Shown piece after piece: positions 1,965 through 10,512 of a stretch of 10,725 bases of DNA (the first letter of the stretch is position 1; each line of letters starts with the position of its first letter). Made by a program: the position numbers and the translations under genes. The notes beneath the pieces were generated by a model that was not told the DNA's origin, made no database searches, and saw only the letters and a list, made by a program, of their open reading frames with translations. The DNA comes from a virus, in the UHGV virus genome UHGV-0134920; one strand, 5' to 3'.

Positions 1965-1996
1965 CGGGTATCACAGATATGACAAACACGAAAAAA

Positions 1997-2023
1997 GCGG
2001 CCCCGATATGGAGCCGCCTTTCT
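1997..2023. terminator. weak candidate bidirectional terminator between convergent alpA and minus-strand genes
   Basis: 5-bp GC stem GCGGC (1997-2001) / GCCGC (2013-2017), preceded by A6 (1991-1996) and followed by CTTTCT. Short stem, so weak. Confidence 0.25.
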
Positions 2024-2112
2024 GAACAATTAACCCGCTGCGCCTTATGTGTATGTGATCCCAAACATAAGCACGGGGATGATAGCCGCTATCAGGCTGG
2101 TGGGCAATGCAA

Positions 2113-2301
2113 TCAGTCTGGTTCAGTTCGTTGCCATACCTGCAATGAGCGCTTTTCCCTGTACTCTTTAAGGAATTGCTCAAGGGCAAAAGCACATGGC
2201 GCGAATCTTTCTGATTCATGCTCTATCTTTCTGCGCCGTCTTTTCCGTGCCGGTGATAATGTTTTGGTCAATTCTTTATCGGTCATTGTGTTGTCCTGCA
2301 T
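2113..2301 (-). CDS. doubtful small Arg/Lys-rich ORF (62 aa) downstream of the minus-strand regulator
   Basis: Sits in the only sizeable gap without a + strand gene (1965-2343), upstream of the candidate terminator on the minus strand. No convincing RBS; contains RKRRRRK. Confidence 0.2.
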   Translation of the reverse strand: MQDNTMTDKELTKTLSPARKRRRRKIEHESERFAPCAFALEQFLKEYREKRSLQVWQRTEPD

Positions 2302-2343
2302 AGCAATGCGCCGTAATACCTTACACCACGGCGCTGGTGATGG

Positions 2344-2649
2344 TTACTCCTGCTCTTTGGCCTTGCGGCGCTGTAGTTCTTCACGAGCGATGGCGATAAG
2401 TTGCCCGAGTTCTTCCGTAGCTTTAATACCAATTTTTTCCACTTGCGCCAATGCATCGAGAGAAGAAATCAGAGGATTTTCACTGCTTCCTTCTGCCTGG
2501 CGGCGGGCGATCTCCCCGCGCATGGCGGTTACTATGAATCCGGCGTTGCTTTCGCCGTCCAGTTTTACGGATTCCATGCCATCAAAAGCATCATGTGGGA
2601 TACGAATTGAAATCTGTTTTGATTTGTCGTTGATAGTGTTTTTTGCCAT
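2344..2649 (-). CDS. putative DNA-binding regulator (possibly ribbon-helix-helix), candidate island repressor
   Basis: 101 aa from ATG (reverse complement of 2647-2649) with GGAGAA RBS just upstream on the minus strand. N-terminal KQISIRIP segment is compatible with an RHH beta-strand. Divergent from the Icd/Ash/primase operon and adjacent to palindromic operators. The ORF-track start at 2688 is probably an upstream in-frame extension. Confidence 0.6.
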   Translation of the reverse strand: MAKNTINDKSKQISIRIPHDAFDGMESVKLDGESNAGFIVTAMRGEIARRQAEGSSENPLISSLDALAQVEKIGIKATEELGQLIAIAREELQRRKAKEQE

Positions 2650-2671
2650 GTGCATTCTCCTAAACAAAAGA

Positions 2672-2747
2672 TGTGATTCAGTATACACAAAAAAGAATCA
2701 CAAAAAACACTTGATCTGTGATTCAGTTGAATTTAATTTAAATCACA
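2672..2747. promoter_or_regulatory. divergent promoter/operator region with two related palindromic operators
   Basis: TGTGATTCAGT at 2672-2682 pairs with GAATCACA at 2695-2702; TGTGATTCAGT at 2717-2727 pairs with AATCACA at 2741-2747. GTATAC at 2681-2686 could give a minus-strand -10-like TATACT. The region lies between divergent start codons at 2649 (-) and 2837 (+). Confidence 0.6.
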
Positions 2748-2836
2748 CCTCAGTAAGAGGATGTAAACGACAACGCCCCGAACTGTTTGCGGCAGTAGCG
2801 GGGCGTCTAACCAAACCGTTAACAGGAGTAACGATT

Positions 2837-3034
2837 ATGGCTGGAACACAGCATACCCCACGTCTGGCGCACACACAAACTGCCTTTGTGTGGCGTTTTC
2901 TGGCACTGAGTGCCGGAGAATCTCAAATCATCCACGTAACCGCCTGGACGGAACGCGAAGCGCGTAGCCGTTGCCCGTCCGGTTGTGTTGCTGTATTCGC
3001 TGCCCGTATTCGCCAGGGGTCACATCATGCGTAA
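2837..3034 (+). CDS. Icd-like small protein (host cell division inhibitor-like family of P4-like elements)
   Basis: 65 aa; AGGAG RBS at 2824-2828; sequence FVWRF...TEREAR...ARIRQG recalled as the Icd-like signature (from memory, unverified). The upstream part of the 351-aa track ORF is rejected. Confidence 0.6.
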   Translation: MAGTQHTPRLAHTQTAFVWRFLALSAGESQIIHVTAWTEREARSRCPSGCVAVFAARIRQGSHHA

Positions 3035-3488
3035 AAACCGCTTGCAAAAAATTATCACGGGGCTGTATGCTTCCCCCGTCGCCCACATGGCGACCGGGTT
3101 TAGCAGCCTGAATACATCTGGCGGACAGCCGCCCACATCCGATAAGCGGTTTTTTTGTGTCCGTAAACCTACCCATACCCGCATTATGGCGGGGCGTAAC
3201 GGGGGAGCCTTTGTGCTCGCTGGTTTCCAGATGACCAGTCTGCTAACCCTGTTACGTCTCGCCACCATGTTTAGCAGCGTAGTAGCGAGACTCCTTAAAA
3301 TTCATCTGGGAGCCTTTCACATGGCTGTATTCGCACGCCCTTATTTTGTCTGGCGCTTTATGCAGTGCCTGACAGACAGTATTGCAATATTCACCGTTAC
3401 CGCTGCCACTGAGCGCGAAGCACGTGCACAGCTGCCGCACGCACATCTGATTTTTGTCGCCCGTATTCGTCAGGGGGTAGGCTTATGA
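3027..3488 (+). CDS. Ash-family-like protein with C-terminal Icd-like module
   Basis: ATG at 3027 overlaps the upstream stop by 8 nt. C-terminal ~55 aa (YFVWRFMQ...TEREARAQ...ARIRQG) are paralogous to the preceding 65-aa protein. An internal start near 3321 (MAVFARPYFVWRF) cannot be excluded. Stop overlaps the next start (ATGA at 3485-3488). Confidence 0.55.
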   Translation: MRKNRLQKIITGLYASPVAHMATGFSSLNTSGGQPPTSDKRFFCVRKPTHTRIMAGRNGGAFVLAGFQMTSLLTLLRLATMFSSVVARLLKIHLGAFHMAVFARPYFVWRFMQCLTDSIAIFTVTAATEREARAQLPHAHLIFVARIRQGVGL

Positions 3489-3715
3489 GCCAGGAAATCA
3501 CACTACAACAGGCAGCAGAACGCGCCCACCAAATCGAAGTTATTTGCGCACTGGCAGAGGATTACCCTGGCATGATGACCGACAGCGAATCAGGGGCAAT
3601 CATCGGCTTACTTAAACGCCTTAGCGGTGAGGTCTGCGTATTCCTGATCGATGAACAGGAAAGAAGAACGCTTATTTCTAACGAAAAAAAATGCGGAGGG
3701 GTACATGTGCAATAA
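3485..3715 (+). CDS. hypothetical protein (76 aa)
   Basis: Translationally coupled (ATGA overlap); CAGGGGG RBS-like sequence upstream; no recognisable family. Confidence 0.45.
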   Translation: MSQEITLQQAAERAHQIEVICALAEDYPGMMTDSESGAIIGLLKRLSGEVCVFLIDEQERRTLISNEKKCGGVHVQ

Positions 3716-3935
3716 AACCACACCGGACGCAGCAGAAGAAGCAATGCAAATACTGATACGTGCGCTCGTTGATGTTACCCACATGGTGGAGATTATGGAG
3801 AGAAAATCACAGTCGGAGCACGACAAAAGAAAACTTAAAACAATAAAAATAATTGCCAAAAACTCGCTGATAAAAGTTACAGACATCCTTAATGAGGACA
3901 TTAAAAGAATAAGGGAGAAAATTTGTGATGCATAA
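3705..3935 (+). CDS. hypothetical protein (76 aa), AT-rich gene
   Basis: ATG at 3705 preceded by GGAGGG (3696-3701); Lys/Glu-rich helical-looking protein; composition visibly more AT-rich than flanking genes. Confidence 0.45.
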   Translation: MCNKTTPDAAEEAMQILIRALVDVTHMVEIMERKSQSEHDKRKLKTIKIIAKNSLIKVTDILNEDIKRIREKICDA

Positions 3936-4155
3936 AATCCATTTTGAAGTATTAATCCACTCTGAAAACGCATTAATTAAAGCACGCGAAATGAATGCGT
4001 TGTTAATTAAATTAATTGAAGTGCCGGAAGGTGGCGAAGATCATTCATCATTAATGTTTGCCGCTGTTCAGACATTATTGACACCTGTTATTGATGAACT
4101 CAATAAGGCTATGGCAATTCACGAGAATAATAAAGCGCCCCACACCGGAGAATAA
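3928..4155 (+). CDS. hypothetical protein (75 aa), AT-rich gene
   Basis: ATG at 3928 overlaps the upstream stop at 3933-3935; AT-rich; no recognisable family. Confidence 0.45.
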   Translation: MHKIHFEVLIHSENALIKAREMNALLIKLIEVPEGGEDHSSLMFAAVQTLLTPVIDELNKAMAIHENNKAPHTGE

Positions 4156-4160
4156 AAATA

Positions 4161-4460
4161 ATGAAACTTAAATATTCTGGCTTAACTGCCAGTGGCAAAA
4201 CTCGCACTAAATTCATGCGCGGTGATATTTACCGCGACCAGTACGGCGGCACGGTAATGATTAAGGGCGTGGAGGAACGGCGCGTAACCTACCGTCGTGA
4301 AGGCTACGAATATGATTGCGTGATGCCTGTTTATCAGTTCGATCGTGATTTTTCTCTGGTGCAGGCCGTACCGCGTAACGTGCCCACCAGCAGGGAGAAA
4401 GCACGCGCCAATATTCAGGAAATAAAAAAGATGCTTAACGTATTCAGGGGTAAAAAATGA
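4161..4460 (+). CDS. hypothetical protein (99 aa)
   Basis: GGAG at 4146-4149 upstream; stop overlaps the primase start (ATGA at 4457-4460), indicating operon coupling with the replication gene. Confidence 0.5.
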   Translation: MKLKYSGLTASGKTRTKFMRGDIYRDQYGGTVMIKGVEERRVTYRREGYEYDCVMPVYQFDRDFSLVQAVPRNVPTSREKARANIQEIKKMLNVFRGKK

Positions 4461-6205
4461 AACTGGCACCGAACGTAAAAAAACAGCCACGCGGAATAAA
4501 ACACAAAGACACAGAGGTAATTATTTTCGCGGGTAGTGATGCCTGGTCGCACGCGAAACAATGGCAGGAGCAGGATGGCCCCGCATCCGGCGATAATGTG
4601 CCGCCTGTGTGGCTTGGGCCAAATCAGCTTGCCGAACTTGATGCACTGAAAATTGTTCCGGATGGAAAAAAACGCGTAAGGCTGTACCAGGCCGGAGAAC
4701 TGGATTTGGTGGAGACCAAAAAGATTGGTCAGAAGCTGGCGGCGGCAGATATTCAGGACGCAAATTTTTACCCCGAAGGAATGCACGTCCAGAAGTGTGA
4801 AAACTGGCGGCGCTATCTGAATGCTGAGCGTGAAAATATTGCCGCAGGGCTTACCATGCCGGAGCAGAAAAATACGCAACTGGCACAAATGGCAGACAGT
4901 GAGCGCGCACAGATGCTTGCTGGTCGATTTGATGGCGTTTGTGTGCATCCGGAAAGTGAAATCGTTCACGTATGGCGCGGCGGGGTATGGTGTCCGGTCA
5001 GCACAATGGAACTTAGCCGCGAAATGGTGGCGATCTATTCAGAGCACAGGGCCACTTTCAGCAAGCGCGTAATCAATAACGCCGTGGAAGCGTTAAAAGT
5101 TATTGCCGAACCAATGGGCGAGCCGTCCGGCGATTTGCTGCCGTTCGCCAATGGTGCGCTTGACCTGAAAACGGGGGAATTTTCCCCGCACACGCCGGAG
5201 AACTGGATCACCACGCACAACGGCATTGAGTACACGCCACCAGCACCAGGGGAGAATATCTGCGACAACGCGCCAAACTTTCATAAATGGCTTGAGCACG
5301 CAGCCGGAAAAGACCCGCGCAAGATGATGCGTATATGTGCCGCGCTGTACATGATTATGGCGAACCGGTACGACTGGCAGATGTTTATTGAGGCCACCGG
5401 AGACGGCGGGAGCGGCAAAAGTACATTCACCCACATCGCCAGCCTTTTAGCGGGGAAACAAAACACGGTAAGCGCGGAAATGACATCGCTTGATGATGCT
5501 GGTGGGCGTGCGCAGGTTGTCGGGAGTCGTCTTATCGTCCTGGCAGACCAGCCGAAATATACAGGCGAAGGCACGGGCATCAAGAAAATCACGGGCGGCG
5601 ACCCCGTGGAAATCAACCCGAAATATGAAAAGCGTTTCACTACGGTAATCAGGGCGGTGGTGCTGGCGACCAATAACAACCCGATGATATTCACCGAACG
5701 GGCCGGAGGCGTGTCACGTCGTCGGGTTATTTTCCGCTTCGACAATATCGTAAGCGAGGCAGAAAAAGACAGGGAGCTACCGGAAAAGATCGCGGCTGAA
5801 ATCCCAGTCATTATCCGCCGCTTGCTGGCGAACTTTACCGACCCTGAGAAGGCACGGGCTTTACTACTGGAACAGCGTGACGGTGATGAAGCTCTGGCAA
5901 TAAAGCAACAGACGGATCCGGTTATTGAGTTTTGCCAGTTCCTGAATTTTCTGGAGGAAGCGCGCGGCCTGATGATGGGTGGCGGTGGCGATTCAGTGAA
6001 GTACACGACCAGGAACAGCCTTTACCGCGTCTATCTGGCGTTTATGGCATACGCCGGAAGGAACAAGCCGCTAAACGTGGCTGAGTTCAGCAAAGCTATG
6101 AAGCCAGCGGCGAAAGTTTACGGGCATGAATATATTACGCGGAAAGTCAATGGAGTTACGCAGACTAACGCAATAACAACAGACGATTGCGACGCGTTTT
6201 TATAA
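4457..6205 (+). CDS. replication initiator, P4 alpha C-terminal-like SF3 helicase/NTPase (primase-helicase family)
   Basis: 582 aa; Walker A GDGGSGKST, Walker B-like RLIVLADQP and SF3 motif C VVLATNNNP. Followed immediately by an iteron array. A catalytic primase (toprim/AEP) domain cannot be confirmed by eye. Confidence 0.85.
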   Translation: MKLAPNVKKQPRGIKHKDTEVIIFAGSDAWSHAKQWQEQDGPASGDNVPPVWLGPNQLAELDALKIVPDGKKRVRLYQAGELDLVETKKIGQKLAAADIQDANFYPEGMHVQKCENWRRYLNAERENIAAGLTMPEQKNTQLAQMADSERAQMLAGRFDGVCVHPESEIVHVWRGGVWCPVSTMELSREMVAIYSEHRATFSKRVINNAVEALKVIAEPMGEPSGDLLPFANGALDLKTGEFSPHTPENWITTHNGIEYTPPAPGENICDNAPNFHKWLEHAAGKDPRKMMRICAALYMIMANRYDWQMFIEATGDGGSGKSTFTHIASLLAGKQNTVSAEMTSLDDAGGRAQVVGSRLIVLADQPKYTGEGTGIKKITGGDPVEINPKYEKRFTTVIRAVVLATNNNPMIFTERAGGVSRRRVIFRFDNIVSEAEKDRELPEKIAAEIPVIIRRLLANFTDPEKARALLLEQRDGDEALAIKQQTDPVIEFCQFLNFLEEARGLMMGGGGDSVKYTTRNSLYRVYLAFMAYAGRNKPLNVAEFSKAMKPAAKVYGHEYITRKVNGVTQTNAITTDDCDAFL

Positions 6206-6213
6206 TTTTTTGC

Positions 6214-6445
6214 AAAAGCCCTCTACCTCCTCTACCTGAAAGGAATAAATGCATATTATTCAATATGATAAGTGGGTAGATGGCCAGGTAGAAGGCTAAT
6301 AAAAACCCTCTACCTCTTCTACATGATTTTATCAATTCCAGGTAGACAGGTAGAGGTCTGGTAGAAGGGGATTAAAAGCCCTCTACCATGCTGAAAGGTG
6401 CGCCATTGCTGGATTTTTGCAGTGCTTGGTAGAAGGGGTAGAGGG
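6214..6445. repeat. iteron array, candidate replication origin
   Basis: CTCTACC at 6221-6227, 6230-6236, 6308-6314 and 6381-6387; reverse-orientation GGTAGA(G/A) at 6275-6280, 6287-6292, 6341-6346, 6349-6355, 6360-6365, 6428-6433 and 6437-6443. Longer unit AAAAGCCCTCTACC at 6214-6227 and 6374-6387, with a one-mismatch copy at 6301-6314. AT-rich stretch at 6241-6270. Confidence 0.6.
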
Positions 6446-7223: not shown

Positions 7224-7472
7224 ATGGTACATGACCGCATAGCGGAGGAACTCGAGGCAAAAGGCTTTTACCGGAGGGCGGCGGCACGATGGGGTGAAGT
7301 CATGCAACTGGTGGAGACAGACAAGGAACGGCATCAGGTTACGATGCGACGGCTGGAATGTTCCAGGAAGGCACAGAGGCCACCGGAGCCGCCAACGGAG
7401 AACTATGCAGACCTGAGAAATGCAGTAAATCGCACTTACGCAGACATGGGGCTGAGCAAATTAGCAGAGTAG
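7224..7472 (+). CDS. possible PerC-family-like transcriptional regulator (tentative)
   Basis: 82 aa from ATG 7224 (alternative GTG 7218). Motif EELEAKGFYRRAAARW resembles the conserved PerC/Pch segment as recalled. The N-terminal part of the 122-aa track ORF overlaps ssb out of frame and is rejected. Confidence 0.4.
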   Translation: MVHDRIAEELEAKGFYRRAAARWGEVMQLVETDKERHQVTMRRLECSRKAQRPPEPPTENYADLRNAVNRTYADMGLSKLAE

Positions 7473-9768: not shown

Positions 9769-9792
9769 GCCGGAGAAATCCGGCTTTTTTTT
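9769..9792 (+). terminator. rho-independent terminator
   Basis: GCCGGA-gaaa-TCCGGC hairpin followed by T8 (9785-9792). Confidence 0.8.
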
Positions 9793-9824
9793 ACGGGTCC
9801 TTTCCGGCATATGGACCCGTTACG

Positions 9825-9858
9825 GGGCGGCGACCTCGCGGTTTTTCGCTATTTATGA
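9825..9858. other. lambda-type cos site (cosN core plus conserved flank)
   Basis: GGGCGGCGACCT at 9825-9836 equals the lambda 12-nt cohesive end as recalled. The next 22 nt CGCGGTTTTTCGCTATTTATGA (9837-9858) differ from the recalled lambda left-end CGCGGGTTTTCGCTATTTATGA at one position. Lies ~135 bp upstream of a Nu1-like gene, as in lambda. Confidence 0.7.
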
Positions 9859-9930
9859 GCCTTTTCAGGGGGGTGGTGGTGGTTTTGTTGTTTGCTCTAT
9901 CTTTATGAATGAAAAGGGAAAGATGCAAAC

Positions 9931-9969: not shown

Positions 9970-10512
9970 ATGAAATCGCACCTGATGAACAAAAAAAACA
10001 TGGCGAAAAGCTGCCGTGTAAGTGCGACAGCGTTCGACAAGTGGGGAGTGACTCCCGTTGAACGTAAAGGCCGTGAGGCGTTTTACGATGTTGCCAGCGT
10101 GATAGACAATAGGGTTAACAATGCAATTAGCCAGCTTACAAACGACAAAGGCGATATTGATGATGATGAACTCTTACGAGTCAGGATCAGATTACTGACA
10201 GCACAGGCGGAGGCGCAGGAACTTAAAAACGAGCGCGATCGCGGTGACGTGATCGATACTGAGTTTTGCCTGTACGCGCTTTCAAAGCTGGCGAGTCAGA
10301 TTTCATCAATCATGGACAGCCTCCCGCTTACTATGCAAAGGAGCTTCCCACAGATTACCCCCGCCATGCTGGATAGGCTTAAAAGGGAAGTGGTTAAAGC
10401 CTGTAATGCCAGTGCCAGAGTTGCCGACAACCTCCCACAGATACTGGCTGATTACTTGAAAGAAACAACCGGAAACGTACCGGAAAAGTTGCAGCCGAAT
10501 AAAGATAAGTAA
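9970..10512 (+). CDS. terS: terminase small subunit, lambda Nu1-like with divergent N-terminal DNA-binding domain
   Basis: 180 aa (alternative start ATG 9985, MNKKN..., aligns better with the Nu1 N-terminus MEVNKKQ). C-terminal two thirds are similar to lambda Nu1 as recalled (RLLTAQAEAQELKNERDRGDVIDTEFCLYALSKLASQISSIMDSLPLTMQRSFPQ versus RLTRAQADAQELKNARDSAEVVETAFCTFVLSRIAGEIASILDGLPLSVQRRFPE). N-terminal ~55 aa are much less conserved. Confidence 0.8.
   Translation: MKSHLMNKKNMAKSCRVSATAFDKWGVTPVERKGREAFYDVASVIDNRVNNAISQLTNDKGDIDDDELLRVRIRLLTAQAEAQELKNERDRGDVIDTEFCLYALSKLASQISSIMDSLPLTMQRSFPQITPAMLDRLKREVVKACNASARVADNLPQILADYLKETTGNVPEKLQPNKDK

Follow-up and report, generated by a model that had tools for sequence, protein, structure and literature searches.

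A small-gene array with a core orf3 and an optional orf2 precedes rgdR in a predicted phage-inducible chromosomal island of Escherichia coli

We analyzed a 10,725-nucleotide stretch of viral DNA (genome UHGV-0134920; here called the window), with emphasis on the small genes located between an icd-like open reading frame (ORF) and the primase gene. Sequence comparison identifies the window as a phage-inducible chromosomal island (PICI) of E. coli that belongs to the EcCICFT073/EcCIED1a type (PMC6092414), since an island at tqsA (ydgG) of E. coli strain 300033 was 99% identical to it across the 1.2 kb tested and its late module is shared by the Nissle 1917 island. Four small genes, orf1, orf2, orf3, and rgdR, occupy the interval in a coupled array (Table 1). 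orf3 is a core positional gene of these islands, orf2 is optional, and the fourth gene is identified from its sequence as encoding RgdR, the orthologue of ECs1581. The overall account that we hold to be probable, with some reservation, is that of a regular PICI early operon with RgdR, a core orf3, an optional orf2, and, with low confidence, a modulator function for the small hairpin proteins.

A previous reading of the window, made from its sequence only, had described two ORFs of about 75 codons followed by a 99-codon ORF, and the positions of all three, on the plus strand, were confirmed. That reading had called the two shorter ORFs visibly AT-rich, and a windowed GC calculation gave the same picture: the 451 bp from 3705 to 4155 have a GC content of 0.375, compared to a window mean of 0.50 (standard deviation, 0.045; windows of equal size). 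Only 1.7% of the 451-bp windows are as GC poor, and the minimum of the entire window lies inside this segment. The values were 0.377 for orf2 and 0.368 for orf3, with third-position GC contents (GC3) of 0.40 and 0.33, respectively; the remaining 16 genes of the window range from 0.47 to 0.59 in GC and from 0.46 to 0.63 in GC3. However, the AT-rich cluster had been extended to position 4460, and this part did not stand, as the rgdR ORF has a GC content of 0.477.

Translational coupling of these ORFs into the early operon had also been proposed, and the gene borders agree with it. orf1 and orf2 overlap by 11 nt, and orf2 and orf3 overlap by 8 nt (GTGATGCATAA). orf3 and rgdR are separated by 5 nt, with GGAG within the final orf3 codons, while rgdR overlaps the primase gene, and the icd-like stop overlaps the orf1 start, in the sequence ATGA. 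orf2, orf3, and rgdR each have a G-rich Shine-Dalgarno sequence inside the preceding gene. The small-gene cluster begins one gene earlier than had been described, with orf1 as part of the same coupled array. Promoter-like and terminator-like sites within the cluster showed no excess over shuffled sequence.

Most borders of the early operon have a G-rich motif, often CAGGGG(G), placed 5 to 8 nt before the next ATG. It was seen at 3470-3488, 3693-3707, 3912-3930, and 4445-4459, and the same junctions were found in loci L002-L015. The motif is encoded by the C-terminal codons of the upstream gene (…RQGxx-stop, …RGKK-stop). Judged by this placement, it could double as a Shine-Dalgarno sequence and a recombination linker in a modular arrangement.

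orf2, orf3, and rgdR are genuine genes under purifying selection. We computed the ratio of nonsynonymous to synonymous substitution rates (dN/dS) between alleles that differ by 3 to 27% in protein sequence, and the values obtained were 0.35 to 0.48 for orf2, 0.16 to 0.30 for orf3, and 0.23 to 0.58 for rgdR. Length and frame are kept even among alleles that are 31 to 40% identical. A gene on the opposite strand (a 121-aa ORF, 3608-3973) was rejected because stop codons interrupt it in other alleles.

The comparative analysis was based on 89 rgdR-anchored loci, of which 76 are IMG/VR contigs and 12 come from genome assemblies, the window being the remaining one; the upstream ORFs of all loci were classified with family profiles. 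Gene order was fixed. It starts with icd and continues with an optional set made up of O61 (61 aa), orf1, N121 (121 aa), orf2, the 121-aa gene again, and NISC (73 to 77 aa), after which come orf3 and rgdR; between one and six small genes separate icd from rgdR. An orf3-family gene was directly upstream of rgdR in 88 of the 89 loci, whereas orf2 was present in 68; orf1 was found in 27. Since orf3 is found in nearly all loci and is AT-rich in every allele, we regard it as core rather than cargo, and the description of the cluster as inserted had to be given up, with only orf2 being optional.

The GC content was between 0.37 and 0.43 in all 88 members of the orf3 family (GC3, 0.36). The orf2 alleles ranged from 0.37 to 0.53, with that of the window at the low end. 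Among distinct proteins, the median pairwise identity was 0.41 for orf3 and 0.85 for RgdR. That orf3 is poor in GC in all of its alleles despite such divergence points to an old family trait and gives no sign of recent insertion. The orf2 and orf3 families (phrog_5146 and phrog_2196) occur in PICIs of the EcCICFT073 and EcCIEDL933 types, and in the Nissle/CFT073-type, CE10, and O157 islands their genes lie at the syntenic positions that they have in the window. An 80-aa gene precedes rgdR in the O157 O-island 51 (OI-51); it shows homology to the orf3 allele of Nissle (E, 2e-8), which in turn is homologous to the orf3 of the window and thereby links the two. orf1 is 54% identical to a 63-aa O157 homologue.

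Two main haplotypes were distinguished. One consists of orf2 (types 0/1), NISC, and orf3 (type 0), and the other of orf2 (type 2) and orf3 (type 1). The window has the latter, which is the AT-rich minority haplotype; compared to the Nissle-type alleles, its orf2 is 31 to 40% identical and its orf3 36% identical. The rgdR region was found in 1,203 of 5,426 complete E. coli genomes, the orf3 allele group of the window in 195, and its orf2 allele in 43. Two alleles stood out. In L020 (2501-2728), the N-terminal half of orf3 is CE10-like and the C-terminal half is window-like (compared with the window and L003), which indicates recombination inside the orf3 gene. In a single genome, L009 (2326-2775), a frameshift at the overlap has fused orf1 and orf2 into a 149-aa ORF.

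The AT-rich region also differs from the commoner haplotype at the DNA level. In blastn comparisons with the Nissle and NCCP13983 islands, homology of about 99% runs up to 3733-3735, and from 4130 onward it is found again at a level of about 89%. In these two islands, the counterparts of the intervening 394-bp block are unrelated to it (about 0.6 and 1.0 kb), and no DNA homology between the block and the commoner Nissle/CFT073-type haplotype was detectable by blastn. From these breakpoints, the orf2-orf3 block qualifies as an exchangeable haplotype. A direct repeat, CACACCGGA, flanks it at 3719-3727 and 4141-4149, and CACCGGA is present at both block edges in 43 of the 68 loci that have orf2 and orf3. 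For a length of 1.2 kb, one 10-nt repeat does not exceed chance; we estimate an expectation of about 0.7 pairs, compared to four such pairs seen.

These features invite the interpretation that orf2 and orf3 are recently acquired, foreign, moron-like cargo for anti-phage defense, anti-defense, or helper interference, functions that the sequence-only reading had suggested for compositionally atypical genes at this position. The GC content of the two genes, 12 to 13 points under the window mean, together with their low GC3 (0.33 to 0.40), would agree with such an origin, as would the lack of DNA homology of the block to the commoner haplotype, the 9- to 10-nt direct repeat around it, and the rarity of the orf2 allele. 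Early small acidic proteins of mobile elements are often anti-defense factors. However, the AT-richness of orf3 in all alleles, deeply diverged as they are, and its presence in 88 of 89 loci make its composition ancestral, and the repeat is at chance level. When held against the features of morons, the composition of the genes is atypical and orf2 is polymorphic, but orf3 is not, and no promoter or terminator of their own rises above chance. The defense models of PADLOC-DB 2.0 returned no families for orf1, orf2, orf3, or RgdR at E values of ≤0.1, which leaves the defense reading without a match, and the products of orf2 and orf3 are modeled as 75-aa alpha-hairpins devoid of catalytic motifs. 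Moreover, defense hotspots have been reported at other places, namely, downstream of pri for PICIs and close to cos for P4 (PMC11364771). We therefore judge recent cargo to be unlikely. What survives of the earlier proposal is the variability of the small early genes and the exchangeable block, with helper interference or anti-defense as possible functions of orf2 and orf3.

In a tblastn search of 50,697 GenBank phages, neither orf2 nor orf3 was matched, and RgdR had a single weak Klebsiella hit. As there is almost no match among these phages, orf2, orf3, and rgdR seem to be genes of islands and not of sequenced phages.

The 99-aa ORF had been counted among proteins of no recognized family. 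This does not apply, as its product matches Pfam DUF4222 (PF13973) over residues 17 to 68 with 84 bits (cutoff, 27; E, 5.3e-24); it does apply to orf2 and orf3 in that they fall only in PHROG families without known function. The O157:H7 island at roxA/pepT (OI-51, CP-933C) has a 99-aa DUF4222 gene that overlaps its replicase gene, and the encoded protein has D10, R20, Q27, K35, H45, and R61, the residues given for ECs1581. The window protein (99 aa; pI 10.05) is 93% identical to it, and in both islands the overlap with the replicase gene is ATGA. On these grounds, we identified the ORF as rgdR.

Flockhart et al. reported that ECs1581/RgdR activates LEE1 and type III secretion (T3S), represses motility, and binds DNA nonspecifically (PMC3378721). 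In the same study, the RGD motif at residues 20 to 22 and K35 mattered for RgdR activity, and a C20R change sufficed to activate the inactive ED1a variant. All of the E. coli PICIs analyzed by Fillol-Salom et al. encode RgdR (PMC6092414). The RgdR of the window differs from ECs1581 at seven residues (S6, A10, R45, D61, V69, N72, and V73). It keeps R20-G21-D22, Q27, and K35; A10, R45, and D61 are common to it and the inactive ED1a variant, whereas the disabling C20 and N35 of ED1a are absent. The window carries a probably active RGD/K35 variant. RgdR is most likely a small nucleoid-type DNA-binding regulator, and its reported effects (LEE up, motility down, and Congo red binding up) would resemble relief from H-NS control. 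In a scan for the RgdR motif with one genome per species, only Shigella flexneri and Escherichia albertii were recovered. RgdR ties these islands to virulence regulation in enterohemorrhagic E. coli, which makes the probably active variant of the window worth knowing. Besides rgdR, the PerC-family gene is another candidate for a virulence regulator encoded by the island.

The constant proximity of orf3 and rgdR raises the alternative that orf3 serves RgdR or the replication module as a dedicated partner, for example, as an acidic protein that antagonizes or chaperones the basic DNA-binding protein or as an antitoxin-like protein, and that the genes act as one unit. Their strict adjacency across the census, with a conserved 5-nt spacer, is what such a unit would show. 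The net charges at pH 7 are opposite (-4.9 for orf3 and +10.5 for RgdR); most of the other small proteins are, like orf3, acidic (-3 to -7), with the K-rich, AT-rich orf2 allele of the window being slightly basic. In addition, the pair holds its position whichever replicase comes next, whether a D5-type primase, AAA_25, or DUF927. Conversely, RgdR alone complemented a T3S defect in trans, and toxicity was not reported (PMC3378721). The conservation of RgdR beside a divergent orf3 is unexpected for tightly coevolving partners. Furthermore, the conserved C terminus of orf3, HTGE, coincides with the Shine-Dalgarno site of rgdR, so that its conservation may be a constraint at the nucleotide level. 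A dedicated partnership thus appears improbable to us.

It is very improbable that the AT-rich stretch acts as DNA or RNA (for example, as a patch silenced by H-NS, an origin of replication, or a structured RNA) with the ORFs being incidental: it is the lowest-GC stretch of the window and contains AT-rich palindromes (TTAATTAA), but dN/dS is well under 1, length and frame are kept across alleles 30 to 40% identical, the origin was rejected in favor of the iterons at 6214-6445, no Rfam match lies within 3705-4460, and the H-NS high-affinity motif shows no enrichment (12 matches versus 11 expected, one of them in the region).

The early-operon account draws on the elements found upstream of the array, where a C4/CI-type antisense RNA, its a1/b1 target motif, and an isrK-like leader were detected. 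The a1/b1 motif, just under the gathering score in the window, scores 46.8 in the 99% identical island L001 (gathering, 46.7). The a' and b' segments of the C4 RNA form their best duplexes at 3064 and 3090, where the a1 and b1 sites lie. The C4 RNA, the targets, and the leader terminator are all within a 153-aa ORF that pipelines annotate as "Icd-like" or "Ash"; for this reason, most of that ORF is probably noncoding. The in-frame ATG at 3267, from which a shorter icd-like ORF can be read, falls within a sequence resembling b1 (TGTTTAGCAGC, 3268-3278), located at the 3' edge of the C4 RNA. The b1-like sequence is a possible b2 site, though duplex energies did not single it out.

The arrangement recalls the left operon of P4. 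There, the C4 model matches only one site, located within the region annotated as cI, and just upstream of it the isrK model matches the leader. The P4 genes run in the order Vis (ORF88), cI/CI-RNA region, epsilon (the "helper derepression protein"), orf151, orf106, and alpha primase. The likeness extends to an AlpA/Vis-type regulator, a C4/CI-type RNA with an isrK-like leader, small overlapping ORFs, and a primase. Overlaps of 8 nt occur in both, in P4 at the cI/epsilon and epsilon/orf151 junctions. From the matching gene order, the small ORFs of the window stand where epsilon, orf151, and orf106 are found in the left operon of P4. The resemblance to epsilon is one of position only and not of family membership. 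The P1/P7 immI operon (c4, icd, ant) is also similar, with a C4 RNA, a1/b1 targets, and then a coupled icd-like ORF. It differs in that the antirepressor stands where the window has small hairpin proteins, rgdR, and the primase. In P1, C4 blocks icd translation and thereby brings about Rho-dependent termination before ant, and in P4, the CI RNA leads to premature termination. By analogy, C4/CI-type control fits the coupled ORFs, which follow one another without a break from icd through the primase gene.

According to our model, 3485-6205 would be one early operon, in the order icd-like, orf1, orf2, orf3, rgdR, and primase, placed downstream of the C4/CI-type antisense RNA with its a1/b1 targets and leader terminator. 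As expected from P1 and P4 biology, the RNA would silence the chain in the resident island, and tight coupling would let a single upstream decision govern all of the genes through the primase. The small genes would be expressed along with the primase upon derepression of the island. orf2 and orf3 would then be small dimerizing, protein-binding modulators made at derepression, and neither enzymes nor defense systems.

What is known of the two families comes from profiles and models. orf2 matches phrog_5146 (E, 4.5e-8) and orf3 matches phrog_2196 (E, 5.5e-10; residues 1 to 69 of 75), families whose functions are not catalogued; both matches span the full length of the profile. An alignment of 63 sequences of the orf2 family gave an N-terminal helix of the form PDAxxxxxxxLxxAL, with P7, D8, A9, L17, A20, and L21 invariant, and the gene sits between icd/orf1 and orf3. 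A profile of divergent orf2 alleles recovered 291 clusters at 90% identity; the 120 listed clusters with an organism name were all Escherichia or Shigella, as were all close relatives of orf2 and orf3. An exhaustive HMMER search of 1.84 billion representatives with the orf3 profile recovered only 15 proteins, the named clusters being E. coli and one Yersinia enterocolitica, with one weak plant match. AlphaFold (AF2) models predicted two-helix hairpins for both orf2 (pLDDT, 88; helices 9 to 34 and 38 to 75) and orf3 (pLDDT, 79; helices 6 to 30 and 38 to 69). Paralogy of orf2 and orf3 was rejected at the sequence level (hhalign probability, 1%), though both are alpha-hairpins. A weak HepT-like match (E, 0.027; under the cutoff) came from an over-long, 94-aa version of the ORF and was disregarded. 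NCBIfam and Pfam gave nothing above threshold for either protein, and we found no paper describing orf2 or orf3. RgdR is already known, and orf2 and orf3 belong to catalogued, apparently unstudied families of a well-known kind of element.

The modulator reading is suggested by the position, size, and fold of these proteins, their lack of enzymatic features, and their deep allelic divergence beside conserved neighbors. With low confidence, we propose from the models and from analogy that orf2 and orf3 are small dimerizing protein-binding modulators aimed at a variable partner. orf3 stands beside rgdR in nearly all islands and yet is far more diverged, the pattern expected for a component facing a variable partner. 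The most plausible partner would be a protein of a helper or competitor phage, as in the case of P4 epsilon, and RgdR or a conserved protein of the host would be less so. A bolder extension, which we consider doubtful, is that the orf3 family with the linked orf2/NISC is a universal E. coli PICI specificity module of deeply diverged alleles with an epsilon-like or related role. If so, the module would bind regulators of helper or competitor phages, or antagonize a nucleoid protein together with RgdR, and each of the two haplotypes would represent a specificity class, determining which phages can be exploited or resisted by an island.

Several observations weigh against this account. Many IMG/VR contigs derive from E. 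coli isolates, so the census loci are not independent. The structure prediction that had been proposed for these ORFs led to generic helical hairpins only (Foldseek against PDB and BFVD; best E, 0.08), PDB sequence searches with orf2 and orf3 gave no match, and the fold and sequence searches together provide no functional evidence on either protein. The orf3 type does not track the replicase type. In four islands, it was likewise independent of the packaging module (lambda E/D and Nu1 shared by the window and Nissle, and an HK97-type module in both CE10 and O157), and helper specificity at the level of morphogenesis is therefore not supported. In blastp comparisons, P4 epsilon, orf151, and orf106 showed no homology to orf1, orf2, orf3, or RgdR (best E, 0.13 to 0.9). 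The a2/b2 targets of the C4 RNA could not be assigned confidently from duplex energies. Finally, the C4 RNA is below the gathering score in many related islands that still have the small ORFs (Nissle, O157, and others), so that gating by the RNA is not a general requirement. It is optional among similar islands, being found where a long "Ash" ORF precedes icd and otherwise falling below the gathering score (L002, L005, L006, L008, L009, L012, L013, L015, and L019 versus L001, L003, L004, L017, L024, and L025). The array of fixed order and variable content and the near-universal orf3-rgdR adjacency are descriptive results, and no new mechanism is demonstrated by them.

Table 1. Features of the window and their positions
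Feature	Position	Strand	Basis or remark
Tyrosine integrase gene	2-1261
AlpA-type regulator gene	1758-1964
YlcI/YnfO-family gene	2344-2688	minus	divergent transcription
Icd-like ORFs	2837-3034 and 3027-3488
a1/b1 target motif	3065-3114	+	RF03163, 45.5 bits (gathering, 46.7)
isrK-like leader	3078-3156	+	RF01394, 36.8 bits (gathering, 50); ends in a hairpin and then a U7 run; hairpin at about 3127-3156
C4/CI-type antisense immunity RNA	3182-3269	+	Rfam RF01695, 72.7 bits (gathering, 45)
icd-like ORF, 73 aa from in-frame ATG	3267-3488	+	NF033153 phage_ICD_like, E 2.4e-13; domain from ~3322
orf1, 76-aa acidic small protein	3485-3715	+	phrog_1478, E 8e-29
orf2, 76-aa protein	3705-3935	+	phrog_5146 family
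Exchangeable AT-rich haplotype block, 394 bp	3736-4129	none	blastn breakpoints
orf3, 75-aa protein	3928-4155	+	phrog_2196 family
rgdR, 99-aa protein	4161-4460	+	Pfam DUF4222
Primase/replicase gene (D5_N, DUF5906)	4457-6205	+	Pfam; distal gene of the coupled chain
Iteron origin (predicted)	6214-6445		downstream of the primase gene
PerC-family transcriptional activator gene	7224-7472	+	PF06069, E 6e-36
cos-like site	9787-9870		80 nt that are 83-96% identical to the cos/terminase-binding region in phage 21 and its relatives
Nu1-like small terminase gene	9970-10512
SSB gene			also in the window
Lambda E-like capsid gene			also in the window
D-like decoration gene			also in the window

The remaining features of the window agree with its assignment as a PICI. 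The iterons are CTCTACC and GGTAGAG, in both orientations, around an AT-rich spacer, and the region is by its sequence a PICI-type replication origin. The cos-like site, just upstream of the Nu1-like gene, is probably the cos site of the island. Neither the window nor the near-identical island L001 contains a psu, delta, or sid gene. A 351-aa open frame on the plus strand (1979-3034) spans the interval that separates alpA from icd and overlaps ylcI on the minus strand; parts of this frame are annotated by RefSeq as an Icd-like pseudogene in related islands.

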